NCBI GenBank assembly: GCA_964607745.1
Contig: CAZSLG010000001.1
Location: forward strand, 1 to 32,555
DNA: 32,555 nucleotides
Direction of reading: 5' to 3'
From: an uncultured Gammaproteobacteria bacterium
GTDB taxonomy: Bacteria > Patescibacteriota > Microgenomatia > UBA12405
In this document: piece by piece, positions 15,253 to 32,555 of the stretch
How positions within the stretch are numbered: position 1 is the first letter of the stretch
How the letters are laid out: the number at the start of each line of letters is the position of its first letter
Position numbers and translations under genes: made by a program
The notes under the pieces: model-generated
The model's database searches: none
What the model saw: the letters and a program-made list of their open reading frames with translations, nothing else
What the model was told of the DNA's origin: nothing

Positions 15253-16296
15253 ATGACTGAGAATGTAACTATTATTGGTGGTGGGCCGGCAGGACTATCT
15301 GCAGCGATTTATTTAGCCCGGGCCGACCTAAAACCTTTGGTATTTGCCGGATCACCTCCTGGCGGTCAATTAACCCTTACTTCAGAGGTGGAAAATTATC
15401 CGGGATTTGAATCAATTTTAGGTGCTGAACTGATCGAAAAAATGAGAAATCAAGCAAAGAAATTTGGAGCAAGGATAGTAGATGAGAATGTAATTAAAAT
15501 TGATTTTTCAAATAAGTCTAATGGGTCTCATAAGACTTATTTGACTAATAAGACATATAATTCAAAATCGGTCATCATCGCCACGGGCGCCAAAGCTTTA
15601 TGGTTAGGTCTTCCTTCTGAAACCCGATTACGCGGGAAAGGAGTGTCAGCATGTGCAACTTGTGACGGATTTTTTTTCCGTGAAAAAACGGTGGCTGTAA
15701 TTGGCGGAGGCGATACGGCCTTGGAAGAGGCTTTGACCTTGACAAAGTTCGCTAAGAAAGTATATATTATTCACCGACGGGATTTTTTTCGCGCGTCAAA
15801 GATAATGCAGGAACGGGTGGGGGTCGGTCACGCCCGACCCGTACAAAAAAATCCAAAAATTGAAATTATTTGGAATTCGGCAGTTGAGGAGATAATAGGG
15901 GAAAAACATGTTGAAGGAATTAAAATTAAAAACGTAGGGGTCGACCGTGGTCGACCCGAACAAGAAATCAAATTAGATGGCGTTTTCGTCGCGATTGGCC
16001 ACAAACCGGACACGAATTTATTTAAAGATAAGATAGAGCTTGATAGTAAGGGCTATATTTTAAATACAAAATATGTTGGAATTGAAAATTTGAACATTAA
16101 AAATTCAACGAAAATTGAAAATTTAAAATTAAAAATTCCGAAGTTTAATATTAATTACGGATCACAAACTTCGGTCCCCGGGGTTTTTGTTGCCGGTGAT
16201 TGTGCCGACCCATATTATCGCCAGGCAGTGACGGCGGCGGGGACGGGAGTTGAGGCAGCGCTGGAGGTAGAGAGATATTTGGAAAATGTAAAATGA
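15253..16296 (+). CDS. trxB: Thioredoxin-disulfide reductase carrying several in-frame palindromic or AT-rich insertions
   Basis: Matches to TrxB: IIGGGPAGLSAAIYLARA, GGQL..T.EVENYPGF, redox-active CATCDG, the second Rossmann motif VIGGGDTALEEA, HRRD.FRAS, FVAIGH.P.T, GVFVAGD and YRQAVTAAG.G. Extra segments are VGVGHARPVQ, VGVDRGRPEQ and KYVGIENLNIKNSTKIENLKLKIPKFNINYG. Confidence 0.93.
   Translation: MTENVTIIGGGPAGLSAAIYLARADLKPLVFAGSPPGGQLTLTSEVENYPGFESILGAELIEKMRNQAKKFGARIVDENVIKIDFSNKSNGSHKTYLTNKTYNSKSVIIATGAKALWLGLPSETRLRGKGVSACATCDGFFFREKTVAVIGGGDTALEEALTLTKFAKKVYIIHRRDFFRASKIMQERVGVGHARPVQKNPKIEIIWNSAVEEIIGEKHVEGIKIKNVGVDRGRPEQEIKLDGVFVAIGHKPDTNLFKDKIELDSKGYILNTKYVGIENLNIKNSTKIENLKLKIPKFNINYGSQTSVPGVFVAGDCADPYYRQAVTAAGTGVEAALEVERYLENVK
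15508..15544. repeat. Perfect 12-bp inverted repeat (family H) inside trxB
   Basis: TCAAATAAGTCT-N13-AGACTTATTTGA. It is related to the hairpin at 18848-18871 and a half-copy at 15227-15239. Translated as ..SNKSNGSHKTYLT.. Confidence 0.6.
15821..15844 (-). repeat. REP hairpin (GGGTCGG stem) in frame in trxB, with a degenerate head
   Basis: GGGTCGG-TCACGC-CCGACCC-GTAC. It is the same hairpin as 22200-22223 and 27356-27379 except that CTAC is replaced by GTAC. Confidence 0.8.
15934..15957 (+). repeat. REP hairpin, in frame in trxB
   Basis: GTAG-GGGTCGACC-GT-GGTCGACCC. Confidence 0.8.
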
Positions 16297-18886: not shown

Positions 18887-20917
18887 TTATTTCGCTTCCG
18901 GACTGGCATCTTTTGGCAACTCCAGCTTTGGGTTGATCTGAGCTGCTGGAGGCGTTGGCAGAATTAGATCGCTCTCAGTTTGTTTGTTAGTTTTATTCAC
19001 AGACCCATCTTCTTCCGGAAGCATTTTTTTAAACTCTTCCAATTCTTTCATCACTTTATCATAATCGGCTTTATTTAGTTTCGGGTCGATCAGTTTTATG
19101 GTTGCCTGCAAAGCGTTGACGGCCTGGGGATAATTTTTTTTCTGAAAATTAGCCCAGGCGTAGTTGTAGCTGGCATTAGGCCAATCAGGTTTCAAGGAGA
19201 TCGCCTGTTCAAAAAATCTTAAAGCATCGTCATATTTATTTTGAGAATAGTAGACCCCACCCAAACTGACTCGATATACCGGGTTTTGCGGGTCAGCTAA
19301 AATTGCCCGTTGGTAAGCCGAAATAGTCCAGACATCAGCGCCCTGGGCGGCATTAATGATATTAAGATAGATTTGAGCAAGACCGTTCCAGTTATCCGCT
19401 TTTTGCGGGTTCAAAGAAATGACCGCTTTTGCTTCGGTGATGGACGCCTGAACGGCTTGAGTTATAGTTTGACGGTCCTGTTCGGAAATTTTTTTTGTCT
19501 GGTCTTTTTTGACAATTCCATTGGCGATCAGAAGATTGGTTTGGGCAAAATTACTTCTAAACCTTTCAACGTACGGATTTAAAATAATCGCCTGTCTTTG
19601 GTTGTCATAAACTAGTTTGGCATTGTTTAAAGCTATACCGTCAATTGATTTTTTGAAAAAATATTCAGAAGCATAGGCGCGGCCGAGAAAATAACCGGAT
19701 ACACCGATCAGACCTAGGGAAATAATAATAACACCAAGATAAATAGGCAACAAGTCAGTTAAATCAAAATCTGTAGGGGTTTTGCGCGAAAAACACGTAT
19801 GATCATCGGTCGTAGGGGTTTGATTTATCAAACCCAATATCACAAAAAACAGAAACCAGACGATCAGGGAAGGAGAAAAGACGAAAAAACAAACAATCAA
19901 ATAAATAAATAAAATAAAATGTAGGGGTCGGGCGTGACCGACCCGCAATATTTGTTTGATTGCATAAACAACCAACAAACCAAACGCCAGTAATCCAAAA
20001 ATACCCGTTTCGGTGAAGATTTGCAAAATTGCCGAACGGGAAACATTAAAACTATTGATCTGCCACAATGGGGATTGGTTATACGCAAAGTCTTTTACCC
20101 GGGTAAAAATAGCGGAAAAATTATCCGGACCAATGCCGATTATTGCCGTCTGAGGGTTTTTCAGAATTTCCAGGGCAGCAAACCAGGAAAGCCGGAAGGG
20201 AGGTAATATTGTAGAGACGCCCAAATTGGGCGTCTGTACCGGTTTCATTATCGAATAAACAGTGAATAATAGGGCGGTCAGAGACAAGATAATAGATCCT
20301 AGATGATAAATGATAGACTGTTGGGGAGAGGTCTCTTCGCCTTTTTTCAAAAGATTAACAATAGCAATAATCGTAAAAAATCCCAGTAGAATTGCCAGAT
20401 CTAATTGTGCACCGACTGGGGTAAAACCTGGATTTTTGAGAAAGGCAAGATTTTGTGGAAGAGCAACGTTTTTGAAAGGTTGAAAATAGAAAATTATTGT
20501 GACCAACGATAGAATGATTGACATCAATTGTAGGGGTCGGGCGTGACCGACCCGTATTTCCGATTGAATTCGCGAAATATAAAAATACAAAACCGCCAAC
20601 GAAATCAACATCACCAACCCGAAATTTGGATTTAATAATGCCTGAATCTTGTTGGGTGAAGAAAGCAAAGTTGATACAGCAACAGACGTTAAAAAAAGAA
20701 GGATCAGCTTGTCAAAGGGTCGTTTTTCCCAAGATATTTTTTTGGAAACAATAATCTGGACGGTAGAGATCAAGACGAGCAATAAAACTCCAAAACCCAA
20801 AAGGTATAACTTGTTAGTGACAAAATATTCCTGGGTAAAATTAAGGAAGAAAAATGGAAATAAAAAGACCAAAGAATAAAGGAAAGTAGTCAAAATTTTT
20901 TGAAAAAAATTATTCAT
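18887..20917 (-). CDS. Wzy_C / O-antigen-ligase-like polytopic membrane protein with a C-terminal TPR domain and multiple in-frame REP insertions
   Basis: It has 10 or more TM segments and a loop ending ..FTETGIFGLLAFGLL typical of the family. The C-terminal TPR repeats read AYQRAILADPQNP...ALRFFEQAISLKPDWPNASYNYAW. REP-derived peptides are RVGHARPLQ, RVGHARPLH, VQTPNLGVST and TPTTDDHTCFSRKTPTD. Confidence 0.8.
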   Translation of the reverse strand: MNNFFQKILTTFLYSLVFLFPFFFLNFTQEYFVTNKLYLLGFGVLLLVLISTVQIIVSKKISWEKRPFDKLILLFLTSVAVSTLLSSPNKIQALLNPNFGLVMLISLAVLYFYISRIQSEIRVGHARPLQLMSIILSLVTIIFYFQPFKNVALPQNLAFLKNPGFTPVGAQLDLAILLGFFTIIAIVNLLKKGEETSPQQSIIYHLGSIILSLTALLFTVYSIMKPVQTPNLGVSTILPPFRLSWFAALEILKNPQTAIIGIGPDNFSAIFTRVKDFAYNQSPLWQINSFNVSRSAILQIFTETGIFGLLAFGLLVVYAIKQILRVGHARPLHFILFIYLIVCFFVFSPSLIVWFLFFVILGLINQTPTTDDHTCFSRKTPTDFDLTDLLPIYLGVIIISLGLIGVSGYFLGRAYASEYFFKKSIDGIALNNAKLVYDNQRQAIILNPYVERFRSNFAQTNLLIANGIVKKDQTKKISEQDRQTITQAVQASITEAKAVISLNPQKADNWNGLAQIYLNIINAAQGADVWTISAYQRAILADPQNPVYRVSLGGVYYSQNKYDDALRFFEQAISLKPDWPNASYNYAWANFQKKNYPQAVNALQATIKLIDPKLNKADYDKVMKELEEFKKMLPEEDGSVNKTNKQTESDLILPTPPAAQINPKLELPKDASPEAK
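19773..19835 (+). repeat. Two tandem REP-like units joined by the ATCATCGGTC linker, in frame in the Wzy_C gene
   Basis: GTAGGGGTTTTGCGCGAAAAAC (weak stem), then GATCATCGGTC, then GTAG-GGGTTTGAT-TT-ATCAAACCC. The second stem is nearly the same as at 16349-16368. Confidence 0.7.
19921..19944 (+). repeat. REP hairpin in frame in the Wzy_C gene
   Basis: GTAG-GGGTCGG-GCGTGA-CCGACCC. Confidence 0.85.
20211..20239. repeat. GTAG-headed perfect palindrome in frame in the Wzy_C gene
   Basis: GTAG-AGACGCCCAA-A-TTGGGCGTCT-GTAC. Confidence 0.65.
20530..20553 (+). repeat. REP hairpin in frame in the Wzy_C gene, identical to 19921-19944
   Basis: GTAG-GGGTCGG-GCGTGA-CCGACCC. Confidence 0.85.
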
Positions 20918-21776: not shown

Positions 21777-22337
21777 CTATTTTTTATTTGCATTCACCGG
21801 ATTATTTCGATCCCGATCCCACATCAATGGGTTGTTAATAATATATTCACGGATTTTATTTAGATCGGATTCATTATGGATGATGTGTTCGTAATAATTG
21901 CGTTGGAATATTTTTTTGCCAGGTGTATTTCGTAATTTATTAATTTGTTTTGAACATTCCGTTTTAAACATCCCAACGATAAAACCCAACGTGCCTGTAG
22001 GGGCGCGGCGTGACGCGCCCGTATCAAATAATTGTGACGCGCCCGTAATCATCGGTCGTGCGCCCGAAACAATATGTAAAATAAAATGTACGTGATTTGG
22101 CATTATTTGAAATGCATCCAATTCAACCGGATGATGTTTGGGTAATGATTCCCATACATTTTCAATGATTTTTCCGTATTGATTTAAATTCATTGAAACG
22201 GGTCGGTCACGCCCGACCCCTACAACAATATCCCCAAACAAACATTCCCGGTTTTCTGTACAAATTGTGACAAAATACAACCCCGATTTTGAATAATCAT
22301 AATTTTGTAACCTGATTGATTGTCTATTTTTGACCAT
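21777..22337 (-). CDS. REP-associated tyrosine transposase (RAYT; IS200/IS605-type Y1 HUH enzyme), copy 1
   Basis: Matches: RLQNYDYS..GLYFVTICT..R...FG, the HUH motif MPNHVHFILH, the catalytic Tyr region FQRNYYEHIIHNE..L..IREYIINNP..W. It has an ATG start. Confidence 0.88.
   Translation of the reverse strand: MVKNRQSIRLQNYDYSKSGLYFVTICTENRECLFGDIVVGVGRDRPVSMNLNQYGKIIENVWESLPKHHPVELDAFQIMPNHVHFILHIVSGARPMITGASQLFDTGASRRAPTGTLGFIVGMFKTECSKQINKLRNTPGKKIFQRNYYEHIIHNESDLNKIREYIINNPLMWDRDRNNPVNANKK
21997..22047 (+). repeat. REP hairpin inside RAYT copy 1, plus a 24-bp extra segment repeating its 3' half
   Basis: GTAG-GGGCGCG-GCGTGA-CGCGCCC at 21997-22020. GTGACGCGCCCGTA occurs at both 22010-22023 and 22034-22047. 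RAYT copy 2 lacks the extra 24 bp (8 aa, SQLFDTGA). Confidence 0.8.
22200..22223 (-). repeat. REP hairpin inside RAYT copy 1
   Basis: GGGTCGG-TCACGC-CCGACCC-CTAC, read in the gene as VGVGRDRP. Confidence 0.85.
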
Positions 22338-22367
22338 ATTTTTATGGTGTTTACCCCGTAAACTTGT

Positions 22368-25300
22368 TTACGGGGATCCCGTTGCCGGACCGAATCTAAT
22401 TGAACTATTTTCGTTATATAAGGTCTTGATTTGTAACGGGGTCAGGGCGTAATTGAAAACCCGGACATCGTCTATCTGGCCGTTGAAATAGCGGTTAACA
22501 GCTTCTGTATCATTTCCAATTATGAGTGACTGTCCTGATGTTGTTATTCCGCCAGAATAATTAACACTATTTTCCTGTTTTCCATTGACAAACACTTTTG
22601 CAGTTGTGCCGTCATATGTTGCGGTAACAAAAAACCAATCACCAGTTTCTATATTTGTTGTTCCGGTTAGAGTCTGGTATGGAGAACCACCAATGTCAAA
22701 TCTTAAACGACTAGAGTTGTCAATGTTAATTTGATAACCAGTGTTAACAAATTTATCTATTATTCCTGAATAATTGTTTGTTCCTGATGTTTTAATCCAT
22801 GCGGCAACAGTAATGGAATTTGAATTTAGTGCAGAATTATCAGTAATTGAAACATAATCATCCGTTCCGTCGAATTCCAGACTGGAGTTATATTTTCCGG
22901 TTACCCCGTCTTTCCAGGCCTCGCCGGCACTACCCGTACAAGTCCCCGCTGAAGTATTTGTTCCCGTTGCTCCAATTGTGATTGTCCCGCTATTTCCATT
23001 ACCGGATGAGTCGTTAGCAGTATTTCCTTGACACTCATCCATCTTCCAATGTCCCACCGGCCCGCCGCGATTGTAGTCCCAGGCGATTTGAGCCGGCGTT
23101 CGGGCGTAGTTGTAGATACGGACGTGGTCAATAGTGCCTTGAAATTCTTCCCATGCCGAAGCAGAACAACAAGCATTTCCTAAGATATCATTTTGAGCAT
23201 TGGTAATATCAATTATTGTGGACATTGATTGTGTAGTTCCAACATTAATTGATCCGTCAATATATAGAACAGCGTTACCGTCTCGGTCTCCAACCAAGGT
23301 GGCATTATGCCAATTGTTATCTATGTAGGTTGAGGTAGTTGCGCTATTAATGAAATGGCCGCCATTGTCCCTAATATAATATGAAACTTCTCCTGTTCCA
23401 GCAACGAAAAGTCCAATACCAGCCCAATCAATACCTCCATCTCTGCTGTCGAAGATTGTTTGAGTATAACTGGATCCTGTGCTTTTAAACCAAGCTGAAA
23501 TAGTAATGTCTTTATTAGTGCTAAAAGTAGTAGCGGAATTATATGGAACACTAATTAGATCGGACCAATCATTGCCCCCGTCGAAATTAATACCTGAACC
23601 AAATTTTCCTGAACGCCACCTAGGGCTACCAGTAAATGTTCCGGTTAGTCCATTCCCACTCGTATCATACGCGTTCGTGCCGGTTTTTTCGTCAAACTTC
23701 CATTCGCCAACCGGAGCAGAGCAGGAAGTCGTATCTCCTGGAACGCAATATCCACGGGCGGAAGAATTATCCGCTACAGCGCCTGTCGAATCGGTTGACA
23801 CAGAGCCTAAAACCATCGCTGATCCATGATTATAGTCCAATTTTATTTCGTCTGACGTGAGAGCAGAGTTATAAATTTTCACTTCGTCAATTAACCCATT
23901 AAAATAAAATCCGGAAGCATTAAAAGTACCAATAAGAAGATCAATACTGGAAGTTGTCAAAGAAAAAGTACGAGCGGTCGAAAATTTATTAATTCCATCT
24001 AAATATCCTGCCCACGTAGTTCCATCATAACTGTAGATAATCTGATGCCAATTAGTATCGGAAATAGTAATACCCGAACCAGTTCGAGGATTAGAGCCGG
24101 TATAACTACCGGAATAAAATTCAACTTGGTTATCAACATATTCCCAAATAATAGAATAAGAATTATCAGTTCCAGCATCATTTCTTTTGCTAATCAAGTA
24201 GCGATTAGTTTGAGTGAGATCAGAGGGTTTCAACCATAATGAAATGGTAAAACTATTAGTTAAATCAACACTGTTATTATCAGGGATATCTACATAATCA
24301 CCATTACCGTCAAAATTAATTGCTTTGCCAAATTTCCCGTTCATTGACCAGGTGGCATTGGTTTTTGTTCCATCCAATGCGGAACCTACGTTACCGGAAT
24401 TACACACGTCGTTTACTCCGCTGGAGCAGGTGTTGTCCGCGCCTTCGTCAAATTTCCAATATCCAAGTTGCGAACCAACCGGACTTCCACCCACGGGGTG
24501 GCCGGCGTTCATATCCTCGACGATTTGCTTGGAGTTACGGACGTAGTTATAGAGTTTTACTTCATCAAGCTTCCCGGCTAAATAGTTAGTGGAAATTTTT
24601 CCGAAATTAAGGGCGGAAGCATTTAGATTAGTTGCGGTCGTGACAGTTATATATTGCCACTGGTTAGCAGCCAAAGTTAAAGAAACAACACCGTTGACGT
24701 AAATAGTTGGAGAAGTAAATCCGGTCGCAGATAATGTTCCGGAGGTGGCAGAAATATAAGCTGAACCGTTTAAGTCAACAAAATAATTGGTTGTTGAAGT
24801 CGGATACGTCCAAAAGGAAACAGAGTTAACGATCGTTGGACCGGTGCCTTGAGAAATATAATCATCGGTACCGTTAAAATTTCCGGCCGAACCAAATTTA
24901 CCGGTCGTCCAATGGCTTGCACCTGTCCCATTCCAGGTGCCGGTGTATCCGTTGCCACTGATATCATTGATCGACGCACCGGTTTTTTCATCAAAGTTCC
25001 AAGATCCAACCGGACCAGGAGCCCAGTAGTATAGGTCTCGAACTTCTTTTCCGGAAAGGGCACGGTTGTATATACGGGCTTCGTCGATTTTGCCGTTAAA
25101 TTCATATGATGATAAACCAGCCTGTCTTGAACCAAATATTAAAGAGTTATCATTTGTAGAAGGTGTATTTGTAATGGTAGTATCTTTTTCTTTTAGTTCA
25201 CCGTTTTGATATATATACAAAGTATTATTTATATCATCAAAAACTCCAATAATATGAACCCATTGTCCTGTGGGAATAGCGGTTTGAGTATCAACTTCTG

Positions 25301-26885
25301 ATTGAACAGAGTTAGTTCCATAAAAACCGAATCTTACAATAGTACCACCAGAATCGTAAAAGAAACCATAATTCCCCATATTACTAGATTGATCTTTGGC
25401 AACAATGCCAGCGTAAGCAATTTGAGTACCGTTGGAATAAACCCAAGTTGATAAGGTAAAAGATGAAGAAAACTCCCAGGCAGAGTTTTCTGTCACCGAA
25501 GTGTAATCATCAATTCCATCGTAAGTGGTAGAATTTCCAAATTTTCCAGCGGCAGAAGTAGTATTACCATTCCAAGCGCCGTTGCTGGCGTTACCGGAAG
25601 AGTCGCAAGAATCATTAACTCCACCTGTACATGTATTAACAGCTGACTCATCCATCTTCCAATATCCCACTAATCCATCGGAAAAAGATGATAGATTTTT
25701 GATGTTGGATCCTAAACTAGCAGCTGTGCCTTTTACCGATCCAGAGCCTTTTGAAGCAAAGTCAGATTTAATTTGAGCCGCCGAGCGGGCATATTGGTAA
25801 ATTTTAACATCATCAACAAATCCATTAAAACGATAAGCGCTATTATTGGTAATGCCACCTATTCTAAGAGGATTACTTTGTGTGCTATTTCCGGCGGTGC
25901 CAGTCCATGAAGCTTGGGTAACCAGCTGTCCATCTCGATACAATTTTAATCCTGAGGTTTCTACAACAGCAACTAAATGGGTCCAATTATTTGTAGCGGT
26001 GCCAAAAGAGTATCCATAACCACTTGAATATAACTTATTATTTGCATCTACAAAATAATAAAAATAATAACTTCCGCTGGAAGAATCAATATTCCATCCA
26101 TTGCTTGCAGCTGCGGGATATTTACTAACAATTGCCTTCCAGTCTCCTTGATTAATAGTAGTTGACTTGACCCAAGTTTCAATTGTTAAAGGCAAATTTA
26201 CTTGATTAGTTTTATGAGGAATATCGACGTAATCTCCAGCATCAAAATATAGACATTTTCCGGACACGCATTGATCTTCAGATTTCCAAGTAGGGGCCGC
26301 AGTTGATGTTCCAAACACGCCGGTATTAGAATTTTTAGTAGAATCATTTGTGTTCGTCCCATATCCCTCATCAAACTTCCAGTAAGAGATCGGGGCGGCG
26401 CCGTTTTCTTCGGAGGCGGCGGTCGGGCCGGAAGTCGGGGAGAAAGTCGCTTGGGAAAATTGGGCGGAAACTGTGCCATTTTGTACCGATGGATTTCCGT
26501 AATAGTGGTATAAATTTGTGTTTCCGGTATTGATAGTTGGAACTAACACATAATAATCAGTTGAGTTTGTATTGCATGCGCCGCCTTCCGTGTCAATAAA
26601 ATATTGAAGCACACGTCCGTTAATATTTGTGAATCTAGAATCACCGCAGTCGGTCTGCAACTTTCCGGCGGTAATAAGAGTTGCCGTATCAACATCAAAC
26701 TTTACTTTTTTATCACTGTCTGCACTTCCGGTATTGCCGATCGTTAATCCAGTTCGATAAAGCCAGCTATCATTCATCCATGCCGCCTGAACCTTTGACT
26801 GATATTTGGTTACGAGATAAAAAATCGGCAGGGTAATGATCAAAAAAATCACCGAAAAAAGCATTATTTTCCGTTTTAAAACCAT
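22368..26885 (-). CDS. Giant surface protein: N-terminal TM anchor, DUF2341-like domain, then about six LamG / concanavalin-A-like lectin repeats
   Basis: MVLKRKIMLFSVIFLIITLPIFYLV is the TM anchor. WMNDSWLYRTGLTI...DCGDSRFTN.NG..L.Y.ID resembles DUF2341. Each LamG repeat ends [ILV]D[ED][VA][KR][ILV][YF]N.A[LR][ST]..[EQ]I...Y, six times. The track start at 26966 would add 27 aa that include a REP, so I prefer the ATG at 26885. Confidence 0.82.
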   Translation of the reverse strand: MVLKRKIMLFSVIFLIITLPIFYLVTKYQSKVQAAWMNDSWLYRTGLTIGNTGSADSDKKVKFDVDTATLITAGKLQTDCGDSRFTNINGRVLQYFIDTEGGACNTNSTDYYVLVPTINTGNTNLYHYYGNPSVQNGTVSAQFSQATFSPTSGPTAASEENGAAPISYWKFDEGYGTNTNDSTKNSNTGVFGTSTAAPTWKSEDQCVSGKCLYFDAGDYVDIPHKTNQVNLPLTIETWVKSTTINQGDWKAIVSKYPAAASNGWNIDSSSGSYYFYYFVDANNKLYSSGYGYSFGTATNNWTHLVAVVETSGLKLYRDGQLVTQASWTGTAGNSTQSNPLRIGGITNNSAYRFNGFVDDVKIYQYARSAAQIKSDFASKGSGSVKGTAASLGSNIKNLSSFSDGLVGYWKMDESAVNTCTGGVNDSCDSSGNASNGAWNGNTTSAAGKFGNSTTYDGIDDYTSVTENSAWEFSSSFTLSTWVYSNGTQIAYAGIVAKDQSSNMGNYGFFYDSGGTIVRFGFYGTNSVQSEVDTQTAIPTGQWVHIIGVFDDINNTLYIYQNGELKEKDTTITNTPSTNDNSLIFGSRQAGLSSYEFNGKIDEARIYNRALSGKEVRDLYYWAPGPVGSWNFDEKTGASINDISGNGYTGTWNGTGASHWTTGKFGSAGNFNGTDDYISQGTGPTIVNSVSFWTYPTSTTNYFVDLNGSAYISATSGTLSATGFTSPTIYVNGVVSLTLAANQWQYITVTTATNLNASALNFGKISTNYLAGKLDEVKLYNYVRNSKQIVEDMNAGHPVGGSPVGSQLGYWKFDEGADNTCSSGVNDVCNSGNVGSALDGTKTNATWSMNGKFGKAINFDGNGDYVDIPDNNSVDLTNSFTISLWLKPSDLTQTNRYLISKRNDAGTDNSYSIIWEYVDNQVEFYSGSYTGSNPRTGSGITISDTNWHQIIYSYDGTTWAGYLDGINKFSTARTFSLTTSSIDLLIGTFNASGFYFNGLIDEVKIYNSALTSDEIKLDYNHGSAMVLGSVSTDSTGAVADNSSARGYCVPGDTTSCSAPVGEWKFDEKTGTNAYDTSGNGLTGTFTGSPRWRSGKFGSGINFDGGNDWSDLISVPYNSATTFSTNKDITISAWFKSTGSSYTQTIFDSRDGGIDWAGIGLFVAGTGEVSYYIRDNGGHFINSATTSTYIDNNWHNATLVGDRDGNAVLYIDGSINVGTTQSMSTIIDITNAQNDILGNACCSASAWEEFQGTIDHVRIYNYARTPAQIAWDYNRGGPVGHWKMDECQGNTANDSSGNGNSGTITIGATGTNTSAGTCTGSAGEAWKDGVTGKYNSSLEFDGTDDYVSITDNSALNSNSITVAAWIKTSGTNNYSGIIDKFVNTGYQINIDNSSRLRFDIGGSPYQTLTGTTNIETGDWFFVTATYDGTTAKVFVNGKQENSVNYSGGITTSGQSLIIGNDTEAVNRYFNGQIDDVRVFNYALTPLQIKTLYNENSSIRFGPATGSP

Positions 26886-26914
26886 ATTAAAAATATTTAT
26901 TTTTTGATTATCAT

Positions 26915-26938
26915 GGGCGAGTCGCGCCTCGCCCCTAC
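26915..26938 (-). repeat. REP hairpin between RAYT copy 2 and the preferred LamG gene start
   Basis: GGGCGAG-TCGCGC-CTCGCCC-CTAC. Confidence 0.8.
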
Positions 26939-26962
26939 ATTTTATGTATCGATATGTTTTTT

Positions 26963-27493
26963 TCATATTGTATTTTTTGGATTATTTCTATCCCGATCCC
27001 ACATTGTTGGGTTGTTGATAATATATTCACGGATTTTATTTAAATCATTTTCCGTACGAATAATATGTTCGTAATAATTGCGTTGAAATATTTTTTGACC
27101 AGGCGTATTTTGTAATTTATTGATTTGTTTTGTGCATTCCGTTTTGAACATTCCAACGACGAAACCCAACGCGCCTGTAGGGGCGCGGCGTGACGCGCCC
27201 GTAATCATCGGTTGTGCACCCGAAACAATATGTAAAATAAAATGTACGTGATTTGGCATTATTTGAAACGCGTCCAATTCGACCGGATGATGATCGGGTA
27301 ATGATTTCCATATATTTTCAATGATTTTTCCGTATTGATTTAAATTCATTGAAACGGGTCGGTCACGCCCGACCCCTACAACAATATCACCCAATAAACA
27401 TTCCCTGTTTTGGGTACAAATCGTTATAAAATACAATCCCGATTGGGAATAATCATAATTTTTTAATCTGATTGATTGACGGTTTTTATTCAT
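26963..27493 (-). CDS. REP-associated tyrosine transposase (RAYT), copy 2
   Basis: By eye, close to nine-tenths identical to copy 1 at protein level, with the same HUH and Tyr motifs. The ATG at 27493 (MNKNRQSIRL) is preferred over the track's TTG at 27505. Its stop overlaps the track ATG at 26966 in an ATGA arrangement. Confidence 0.88.
   Translation of the reverse strand: MNKNRQSIRLKNYDYSQSGLYFITICTQNRECLLGDIVVGVGRDRPVSMNLNQYGKIIENIWKSLPDHHPVELDAFQIMPNHVHFILHIVSGAQPMITGASRRAPTGALGFVVGMFKTECTKQINKLQNTPGQKIFQRNYYEHIIRTENDLNKIREYIINNPTMWDRDRNNPKNTI
27177..27200 (+). repeat. REP hairpin inside RAYT copy 2
   Basis: GTAG-GGGCGCG-GCGTGA-CGCGCCC. Confidence 0.85.
27356..27379 (-). repeat. REP hairpin inside RAYT copy 2
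   Basis: GGGTCGG-TCACGC-CCGACCC-CTAC. Confidence 0.85.
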
Positions 27494-27494
27494 A

Positions 27495-32555
<5,061 letters not shown>

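Follow-up and report, generated by a model that had tools for sequence, protein, structure and literature searches.

The window analyzed here, i.e., the whole stretch of 32,555 nt of contig CAZSLG010000001.1, harbors two RAYT (TnpA-REP) genes, each of which carries a pair of REP-type hairpins inside its own reading frame, on either side of the codons for the catalytic HUH motif (His-Val-His). The locus raises the question of whether such hairpins regulate the gene that contains them, delimit a segment that moves or converts as a unit, coincide with conserved parts of the enzyme, or are REPs that have entered the gene and are tolerated there. If the in-gene copies were source or regulatory copies, they would explain RAYT-REP matching through long vertical descent and horizontal transfer.

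Two RAYT Genes in the Window

Both genes are listed ORFs on the minus strand. Copy 1 is positioned at 21777..22337 and encodes 186 amino acids, and copy 2 is positioned at 26963..27493 and encodes 176 amino acids from its ATG, a TTG start at 27505 giving an alternative of 180 amino acids. The two proteins scored 29.3 and 26.8 bits with Pfam PF01797 (Y1_Tnp), above the curated cut-off of 23 bits, and alignment of 46 sequences revealed that HVH (H82 and H84) and Y157 of the YIINNP motif are invariant. The AlphaFold model of copy 2 showed a mean pLDDT of 79.6 and a pTM of 0.76, and the best 30 Foldseek matches of the RAYT model were all Y1 transposases, among them IS608/ISDra2 TnpA and the TnpA-REP 4ER8. 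The Pfam assignment, the HUH and tyrosine residues, and the Foldseek matches support the identification of both ORFs as RAYT genes. With the NCBIfam equivalog model NF047646, the proteins reached 65 and 64.5 bits, and the name of the equivalog was dropped for them because these scores are below its cut-off of 80. We suspect that this model is centered on a subclass other than that of the window proteins.

RAYTs usually occur as a single copy per genome. The window has two, paralogues present 5 kb apart that share on average 87% identical alignment columns. The G+C content of the window is 40%, its nearest database relatives are Candidatus Roizmanbacteria, and its RAYTs share 40-56% identity with cyanobacterial and other homologues.

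An Inverted Pair of REP Hairpins Within Each Gene

In copy 1, the hairpin upstream of the HUH codons (REP1, site 1; GTAGGGGTCGGGCGTGACCGACCC) lies at 22200..22223 on the minus strand, in gene sense, and is read as VGVGRDRP. The hairpin downstream (REP2, site 2; GTAGGGGCGCGGCGTGACGCGCCC) lies at 21997..22020 on the plus strand, antisense to the gene, which reads GASRRAPT at this place. The same two sequences are found in copy 2 at 27356..27379 (REP1, minus strand) and at 27177..27200 (REP2, plus strand). The HUH codons, located from the sequence and its translation, are placed between REP1 and REP2 on the minus strand, at 22086..22094 in copy 1 and at 27242..27250 in copy 2. Along the sense strand of the gene, GTAG-hairpin is followed by the HUH codons and then by hairpin-CTAC, and REP1 and REP2 are separated by 179 nt (copy 1) or 155 nt (copy 2).

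All four in-gene hairpins are 24 nt long, with a perfect 7-bp stem and a 6-nt loop, GCGTGA. REP1 consists of the tag GTAG and the stem halves GGGTCGG and CCGACCC around this loop, and REP2 of the same tag with GGGCGCG and CGCGCCC; the tag and the loop are common to both, whereas the inner four stem pairs differ (TCGG/CCGA vs. CGCG/CGCG). The predicted ssDNA energies of the REP units range from -7.1 to -10 kcal/mol. The four hairpins, inverted around the HUH codons in both copies, had been described in the earlier note and were confirmed from the sequence, as was their translation (VGVGRDRPV and GASRRAPTG). The nucleotide identity claimed around REP1 was also borne out, the longest run identical between the copies being one of 75 nt around this hairpin (P = 0.002, permutation).

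The 24-nt unit corresponds to eight codons. Only one of the three frames on the GTAG strand, that beginning at GTA, is stop-free, and the complementary strand is open in all three frames. The AlphaFold model places both sites in surface loops, site 1 at the end of a beta-hairpin that precedes the first helix, and site 2 in a disordered loop (pLDDT < 50) that leads from the HUH strand to the next helix.

REP Units Across the Window

A scan of the window for GTAG followed by a perfect 7-bp G+C-rich hairpin identified nine such hairpins, as compared with a mean of 0.005 and a maximum of 1 in 200 dinucleotide shuffles. Two copies identical to REP1 are present at 19921..19944 and 20530..20553 (both plus strand), in frame within a membrane/TPR gene (18887..20917). 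A variant, GTAGGGGTCGACCGTGGTCGACCC, is in frame within the thioredoxin-reductase gene at 15934..15957 (plus strand), and a REP1-type hairpin with a mutated tag (GTAC instead of CTAC on the plus strand) forms an 8-residue insertion in the same enzyme at 15821..15844 (minus strand). A further variant, GTAGGGGCGAGGCGCGACTCGCCC, flanks RAYT copy 2 at 26915..26938 (minus strand), 25 nt past its stop codon. With identical or variant copies at 19921, 20530, 15934, 26938, and 15821, the in-gene hairpins belong to the genome's own REP family, as had been proposed.

All ten REP-like units of the window are inside ORFs, and the classical extragenic location was not observed. Bracketing of the REPtron kind was also not seen, copy 2 having one REP downstream and copy 1 none outside its ORF. 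For annotation, this means that the REPs here are intragenic and add 8-residue loops to housekeeping proteins.

The two in-frame REP units of the thioredoxin-reductase gene (trxB; 15253..16296, plus strand) read VGVGHARPV and VGVDRGRP. Alignment to solved TrxB structures showed an exact 8-residue gap at the 15821 unit ('gvgharpv') and a smaller gap at the 15934 unit. The protein also contains an extra Asn/Lys-rich insertion of 20-odd residues near residues 270-291. The membrane/TPR gene, on the minus strand, encodes a 676-aa membrane protein with C-terminal TPR repeats, in which both REP1 copies read RVGHARPL; a different GTAG-tagged hairpin, GTAGAGACGCCCAAATTGGGCGTCT, is located within this gene at 20211-20235.

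The Hairpins as Insertions in Two Variable Loops

A survey of 160 related loci, 80 from genomes of many phyla and 80 from metagenomes, provided 120 distinct full-length genes. The site 1 linker has 8 residues (type DIVDGEMR) in 100 of the 120 genes and 15 residues in the window, and the homologue alignment thereby agrees with the earlier suggestion that the GGGTCGG unit is an insertion. Expansions of site 1 were found in the CPR (Candidate Phyla Radiation) clade and, independently, in one proteobacterial and one Calothrix gene. Throughout the Roizmanbacteria-like clade site 1 is occupied, with stems that vary by lineage (VGVGRDRP, VGARRDAP, VGAHHDAP, VGAIHESP, and others). The site 2 linker varies from 12 to 80 residues among the 120 genes, with a median of 35.5, and the shortest linkers are without REP-like sequence.

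The density of GTRG-tagged hairpins was 13.3 per kb at site 2 (102/120 genes), 4.2 per kb at site 1 (14/120 genes), and 0.24 per kb elsewhere in the gene (13 hairpins over 54 kb). Outside the genes, it was 3.4 per kb within 100 bp and about 0.15-0.2 per kb beyond 1 kb. In the remaining 18 of the 120 genes, site 2 lacks a tagged hairpin. All three frames are used to translate the CYAC foot of this site, giving A-P-T (72 cases), x-P-L (25), or P-Y (4), and for this reason the recurring element is DNA and not peptide. Universal conservation of the two peptides among RAYTs, named in the earlier note as the sign of structural rather than inserted segments, was not found, since site lengths and frames vary. 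Both in-gene REP segments are located in variable loops and, on this evidence, do not appear to be structural peptides. When scored by its tag and first 8 stem bases, the in-gene REP recurred in the flanks of its own gene in 39 of 104 genes, as against 1 to 9 with permuted loci.

Several distinct REP families built on a GTAGGGG...CCC frame, with differing stems, are present in the flanks on related CPR contigs (L083, L088, L081, and L103). Each RAYT lineage seems to keep its own REP type in its gene, for example GTAGGGGCATTGCGCGCAATGCCC in L092 and L094. At empty site 1, GT[AG]G is more frequent (0.40 vs. 0.13 per 30 nt) and is present in 30 of 100 linkers. A GTRG already encoded there by Val-Asp was considered as an insertion target and set aside, as it follows from the residues themselves and decides nothing.

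Frozen Silent Sites and Gain or Loss of 24-nt Units

Codon usage was compared among W, L083, L087, L096, and L104 at same-residue codons, in families with ≥4 codons. The codons were identical in 52/52 comparisons within REP1, 73/80 within REP2, and 165/333 in the rest of the gene, a test that is indicative since the compared pairs are not independent. The sole variable position of REP2 is the base just past CTAC, and silent positions are frozen exactly to the REP boundary. In L096 and L104, site 1 bears a REP2-type stem, a compensatory change with three amino acids altered. The in-gene REPs have evidently been kept nucleotide-identical among RAYT lineages that are saturated at their other silent sites.

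In one homologue (P0029/L161; L161:1037-1498), exactly the 24 nt of REP1 are missing, with CATCCC|GTTTCA in place of the CATCCT-REP-GTTTCG of L087, which suggests that the unit was lost precisely. This gene retains the His-Pro and Val-Ser codons that adjoin REP1 in its REP-bearing relatives (L087 and L083). L102 and L108 had also been considered as a filled and empty pair; their junctions are not clean, and P0029/L161 is the clean case.

Two partial REP units adjoin REP2 in copy 1, at 22021..22065 on the plus strand: GTATCAAATAATT+GTGACGCGCCC, followed by GTAATCATCGGTC+GTGCGCCC. The former unit is 24 nt long and absent from copy 2 (gap at alignment columns 358-381); these extra 24 nt of copy 1 consist of a 13-nt spacer together with the loop and the 3' stem half of REP2. 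The P0029/L161 variant and the unit particular to copy 1 show that, to judge from the sequences, in-gene REPs are acquired and lost in discrete steps of 24 nt. Units repeated in tandem every 24 nt are also found beside the in-gene REPs of L081 (site 1) and of L087/L088 and L096 (site 2). They are built of a spacer of ∼13 nt, the loop, and the 3' half-stem, and encode 8-residue repeats such as SGASRYIV and NNNQGALE. The make-up of the tandem units suggests that they may have arisen by slippage or aborted processing at the hairpin.

Uneven Divergence Between the Two Copies

A tract of low divergence between copy 1 and copy 2 extends over 21993..22232, with its counterpart in copy 2 at 27173-27388. 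It contains 9 differences in 216 aligned columns, as against 54 in 312 in the rest of the CDS, and 7 of these 9 differences cluster in the middle of the tract. Between REP1 and REP2, silent divergence was 0.086, as against 0.54 and 0.45 in the N-terminal and C-terminal flanks, respectively (Fisher p = 8e-6). The core is young in comparison with L081 and L083/84 as well, and yet saturated in comparison with L087/88/91, which argues for a mosaic history and not for constraint. Silent-site constraint as the cause of the low divergence was rejected, as the protein is equally conserved in L087/88/91, where the core is saturated. The low silent divergence from REP to REP points to a later homogenization of the two copies.

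The left boundary of the tract was at REP1 in every pair compared. The right boundary was at REP2 only for copy 1 vs. copy 2 and L081; between copy 1 and L083 the low-divergence tract extends ∼130 nt past REP2. From the identical sequence around the GGGTCGG unit, the earlier note had concluded that the insertion is older than the duplication. This age holds for the REPs, as the same two REPs are present at the same sites in L083 and L087, but the identity of the flanks is not simple inheritance, in view of a silent divergence of 0.086 against ∼0.5.

A further homologue (L081:1122-1673) is a mosaic. Its N-terminal part has a silent divergence of ∼0.46-0.49 from both copies, the core resembles both, and the C-terminal part resembles copy 2 (0.22). 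Such a pattern indicates recombination among RAYT alleles or paralogues in the lineage.

Relation to Known Systems

In-frame REP insertions between HUH and Y were reported by Quentin, Siguier, Chandler & Fichant (2018, BMC Genomics 19:475; PMC6006769), who called them "a unique feature of subclass 2.4". This TnpA-REP subclass, with the consensus NH[IFV]H, WQ, and YIxNNP and a median length of 194 aa, is known from Cyanobacteria, Bacteroidetes, and various phyla (PMC6006769), and it is the RAYT group 4 of Bertels et al. (2017; PMC5581495). The idea of REP hairpins in the RAYT's own gene is thus not new, having been published for subclass 2.4 (PMC6006769), and the finding in the window is therefore a rediscovery in a new host. 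The window RAYTs have NHVH and YIINNP in common with the subclass, along with an enlarged and variable HUH-to-Tyr distance, in a loop made variable by short repeats and predicted to be peripheral. In-frame REPs in the loop after the HUH strand are likewise shared (REP2 in both window copies), as are the GT[AG]G foot and three G-C pairs at the base of the stem (GTAG and GGG....CCC in the window unit).

However, the WQ of the subclass is replaced in the window RAYTs and their nearest relatives, which have FQRNYYEH; the distant homologues (40-56% identity) have WQRNYYEH, and the aromatic change is conservative. The window also deviates in its Roizmanbacteria-like CPR host and in REPs that are short single-foot units of 24 nt. 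Unlike the subclass, it has a second insertion upstream of HUH, resulting in an inverted pair around the catalytic motif, as well as two paralogues 5 kb apart, and external flanking REPs are nearly absent. A search for literature linking RAYT or TnpA-REP to CPR or Patescibacteria found no relevant paper. What is new here is the CPR host, the second site, the frozen REP codons, the 24-nt presence/absence variant, and the tract starting at REP1. The main contribution of the window is to add the Candidate Phyla Radiation, as well as a second insertion site, to the published phenomenon.

The fold of the window RAYT is similar to that of the E. coli TnpA-REP (4ER8; Messing et al., 2012; PMC3479197), with a Foldseek TM of 0.55 and an rmsd of 4.1 A. 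The substrate of the E. coli enzyme is likewise a G+C-rich hairpin with 5' GTAG, and HUH/Tyr chemistry is presumed to be common to both. The E. coli protein belongs to subclass 2.2, and its gene, unlike those of the window, is flanked by REPs and has none inside. REPs and Rickettsia palindromic elements have been reported within protein-coding genes (Di Nocera et al., 2013; PMC3733652). Similar to these, the palindromes in trxB, the membrane protein, and the RAYTs are in frame and translated as loop extensions. The window differs from those elements in that its REP-like units are all within ORFs and one of their hosts is the transposase itself. REPINs, attributed to work by Bertels and Rainey in 2011, are reportedly REP doublets that form hairpins. 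The window pair is comparable in being inverted, with REP1 and REP2 predicted to pair in single-stranded nucleic acid, but its spacer of 155-179 nt is coding, its stems differ, and within the window the doublet is present only in the two RAYT genes.

Possible Roles of the In-Gene REPs

It is very improbable that the two peptides are structural elements conserved in the enzyme, with the hairpin potential being incidental. G..R.AP(T) hardly varies within the closest clade (G99, A104, and P105), and an IS200 transposase structure aligns 'RYAP' at that place. However, members devoid of REPs lack the motif (L053, L018, and L012, whose linkers span 12 to 21 residues), three different frames are used for the foot, stems change in a compensatory way while amino acids change, and disorder is predicted for the segment. 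Frame usage, length variation, and silent sites frozen to the REP boundary led to the rejection of this reading. A dedicated autoregulatory device appears unlikely. RAYT would, in that case, bind the hairpins on its own gene (on the non-template strand for REP1) or on its mRNA and lower expression, or the hairpins would modulate translation or mRNA decay. Such a device would agree with nucleotide conservation of the REPs against a saturated silent background, with occupancy of site 2 in 85% of the family, and with the stable mRNA structure predicted over the region (z = -3.5 and -2.2). The presence of the same REPs in frame in unrelated genes, trxB and the membrane-protein gene, weakens any role specific to the RAYT gene. 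Within site 2, REPs differ freely in position and copy number, the linker being 12 to 80 residues long, and 18 of 120 genes do without a tagged hairpin there, which also speaks against regulation. On the strand of the gene, no T-run comes after either REP, and the hairpins are hence not intrinsic terminators, a reading that was dropped.

A REPIN-like cassette, i.e., a REP-HUH-REP segment that moves or converts as a unit between paralogues, or whose excision switches the transposase off, is also improbable. In RNA and ssDNA folds, both minimum-energy and centroid, REP1 is predicted to pair with REP2 in a stem of ∼25 bp enclosing the HUH segment. The low silent divergence from REP to REP and the same young core in L081 and L083/84 (not in L087) are in agreement with such a unit. 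On the other hand, the right end of the tract coincides with REP2 in some pairs and lies beyond it in the comparison with L083, the differences cluster mid-tract, and no copy of the segment is present outside the RAYT genes of the window. The stems of REP1 and REP2 differ, favoring local hairpins, and as it is the inner stems that differ, it can be argued that selection acts on the local hairpins. A REP-to-REP deletion was sought among the short homologue matches and none was found, P0040 having a different internal deletion and the others being truncated.

The genes are probably two paralogous genes of the TnpA-REP subclass 2.4 type, with live cognate REPs inside two permissive loops, where they are tolerated and unstable. 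RAYT would act on single-stranded GTAG hairpins, mostly near its own gene; the fall in REP density from ∼13 per kb at site 2 to 3.4 within 100 bp and ∼0.2 further away would fit such near-gene action. Entry of REPs into the RAYT loops would be favored by this preference of the enzyme, and only in-frame copies in the two permissive loops would survive, tolerated because the unit amounts to eight stop-free codons. The in-gene REPs would remain live and cause local instability, seen as tandem half-REP units and as the boundary of a gene-conversion tract between the paralogues. Action in cis, gain and loss mediated by RAYT, and recombination stimulated by REPs are steps that we infer, and a separate regulatory role for the in-gene REPs need not be assumed. 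Neither the autoregulation nor the excised 200-bp products raised in the earlier note are called for by the data.

Some observations do not sit well with tolerated REPs. Merely tolerated passengers should drift at silent sites, and the in-gene REPs do not, which implies either selection at the DNA or RNA level or continual renewal. An occupancy of 85% at site 2 across many phyla is higher than expected of an accidental process. Departures from the subclass 2.4 pattern, namely FQ in place of WQ, 65 bits with NF047646 against a cut-off of 80, the want of external REP bracketing, and the presence of two copies, also count against this explanation. It may tentatively be proposed, though we regard it as doubtful, that the cognate REP has been internalized, kept identical by selection on DNA or RNA, and necessarily co-inherited as a source copy of dispersed REPs and/or an autoregulatory site, the CPR pair being a REPIN-like stem around the HUH segment and REP1 a recurrent recombination boundary between paralogues. 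The frozen silent REP sites in an otherwise saturated gene argue for more than tolerated passengers, and the in-gene REPs coincide with gain or loss of 24 nt and with one recombination-tract boundary.

Surroundings of the RAYT Genes

Two giant ORFs are present on the same (minus) strand as the RAYT genes, at 22368..26966 (1532 aa) and 27495..32405 (1636 aa), and one RAYT gene is located immediately downstream of each. The second giant ORF (27495..32405) opens with ∼40 collagen-like GPTGATGVT repeats. A perfect 10-bp palindrome, CCCCGTAAAC..GTTTACGGGG, at 22354-22375 lies a short way upstream of RAYT copy 1, where it overlaps the end of the first giant ORF. This palindrome is unrelated to the REP family and could be a terminator-like hairpin.
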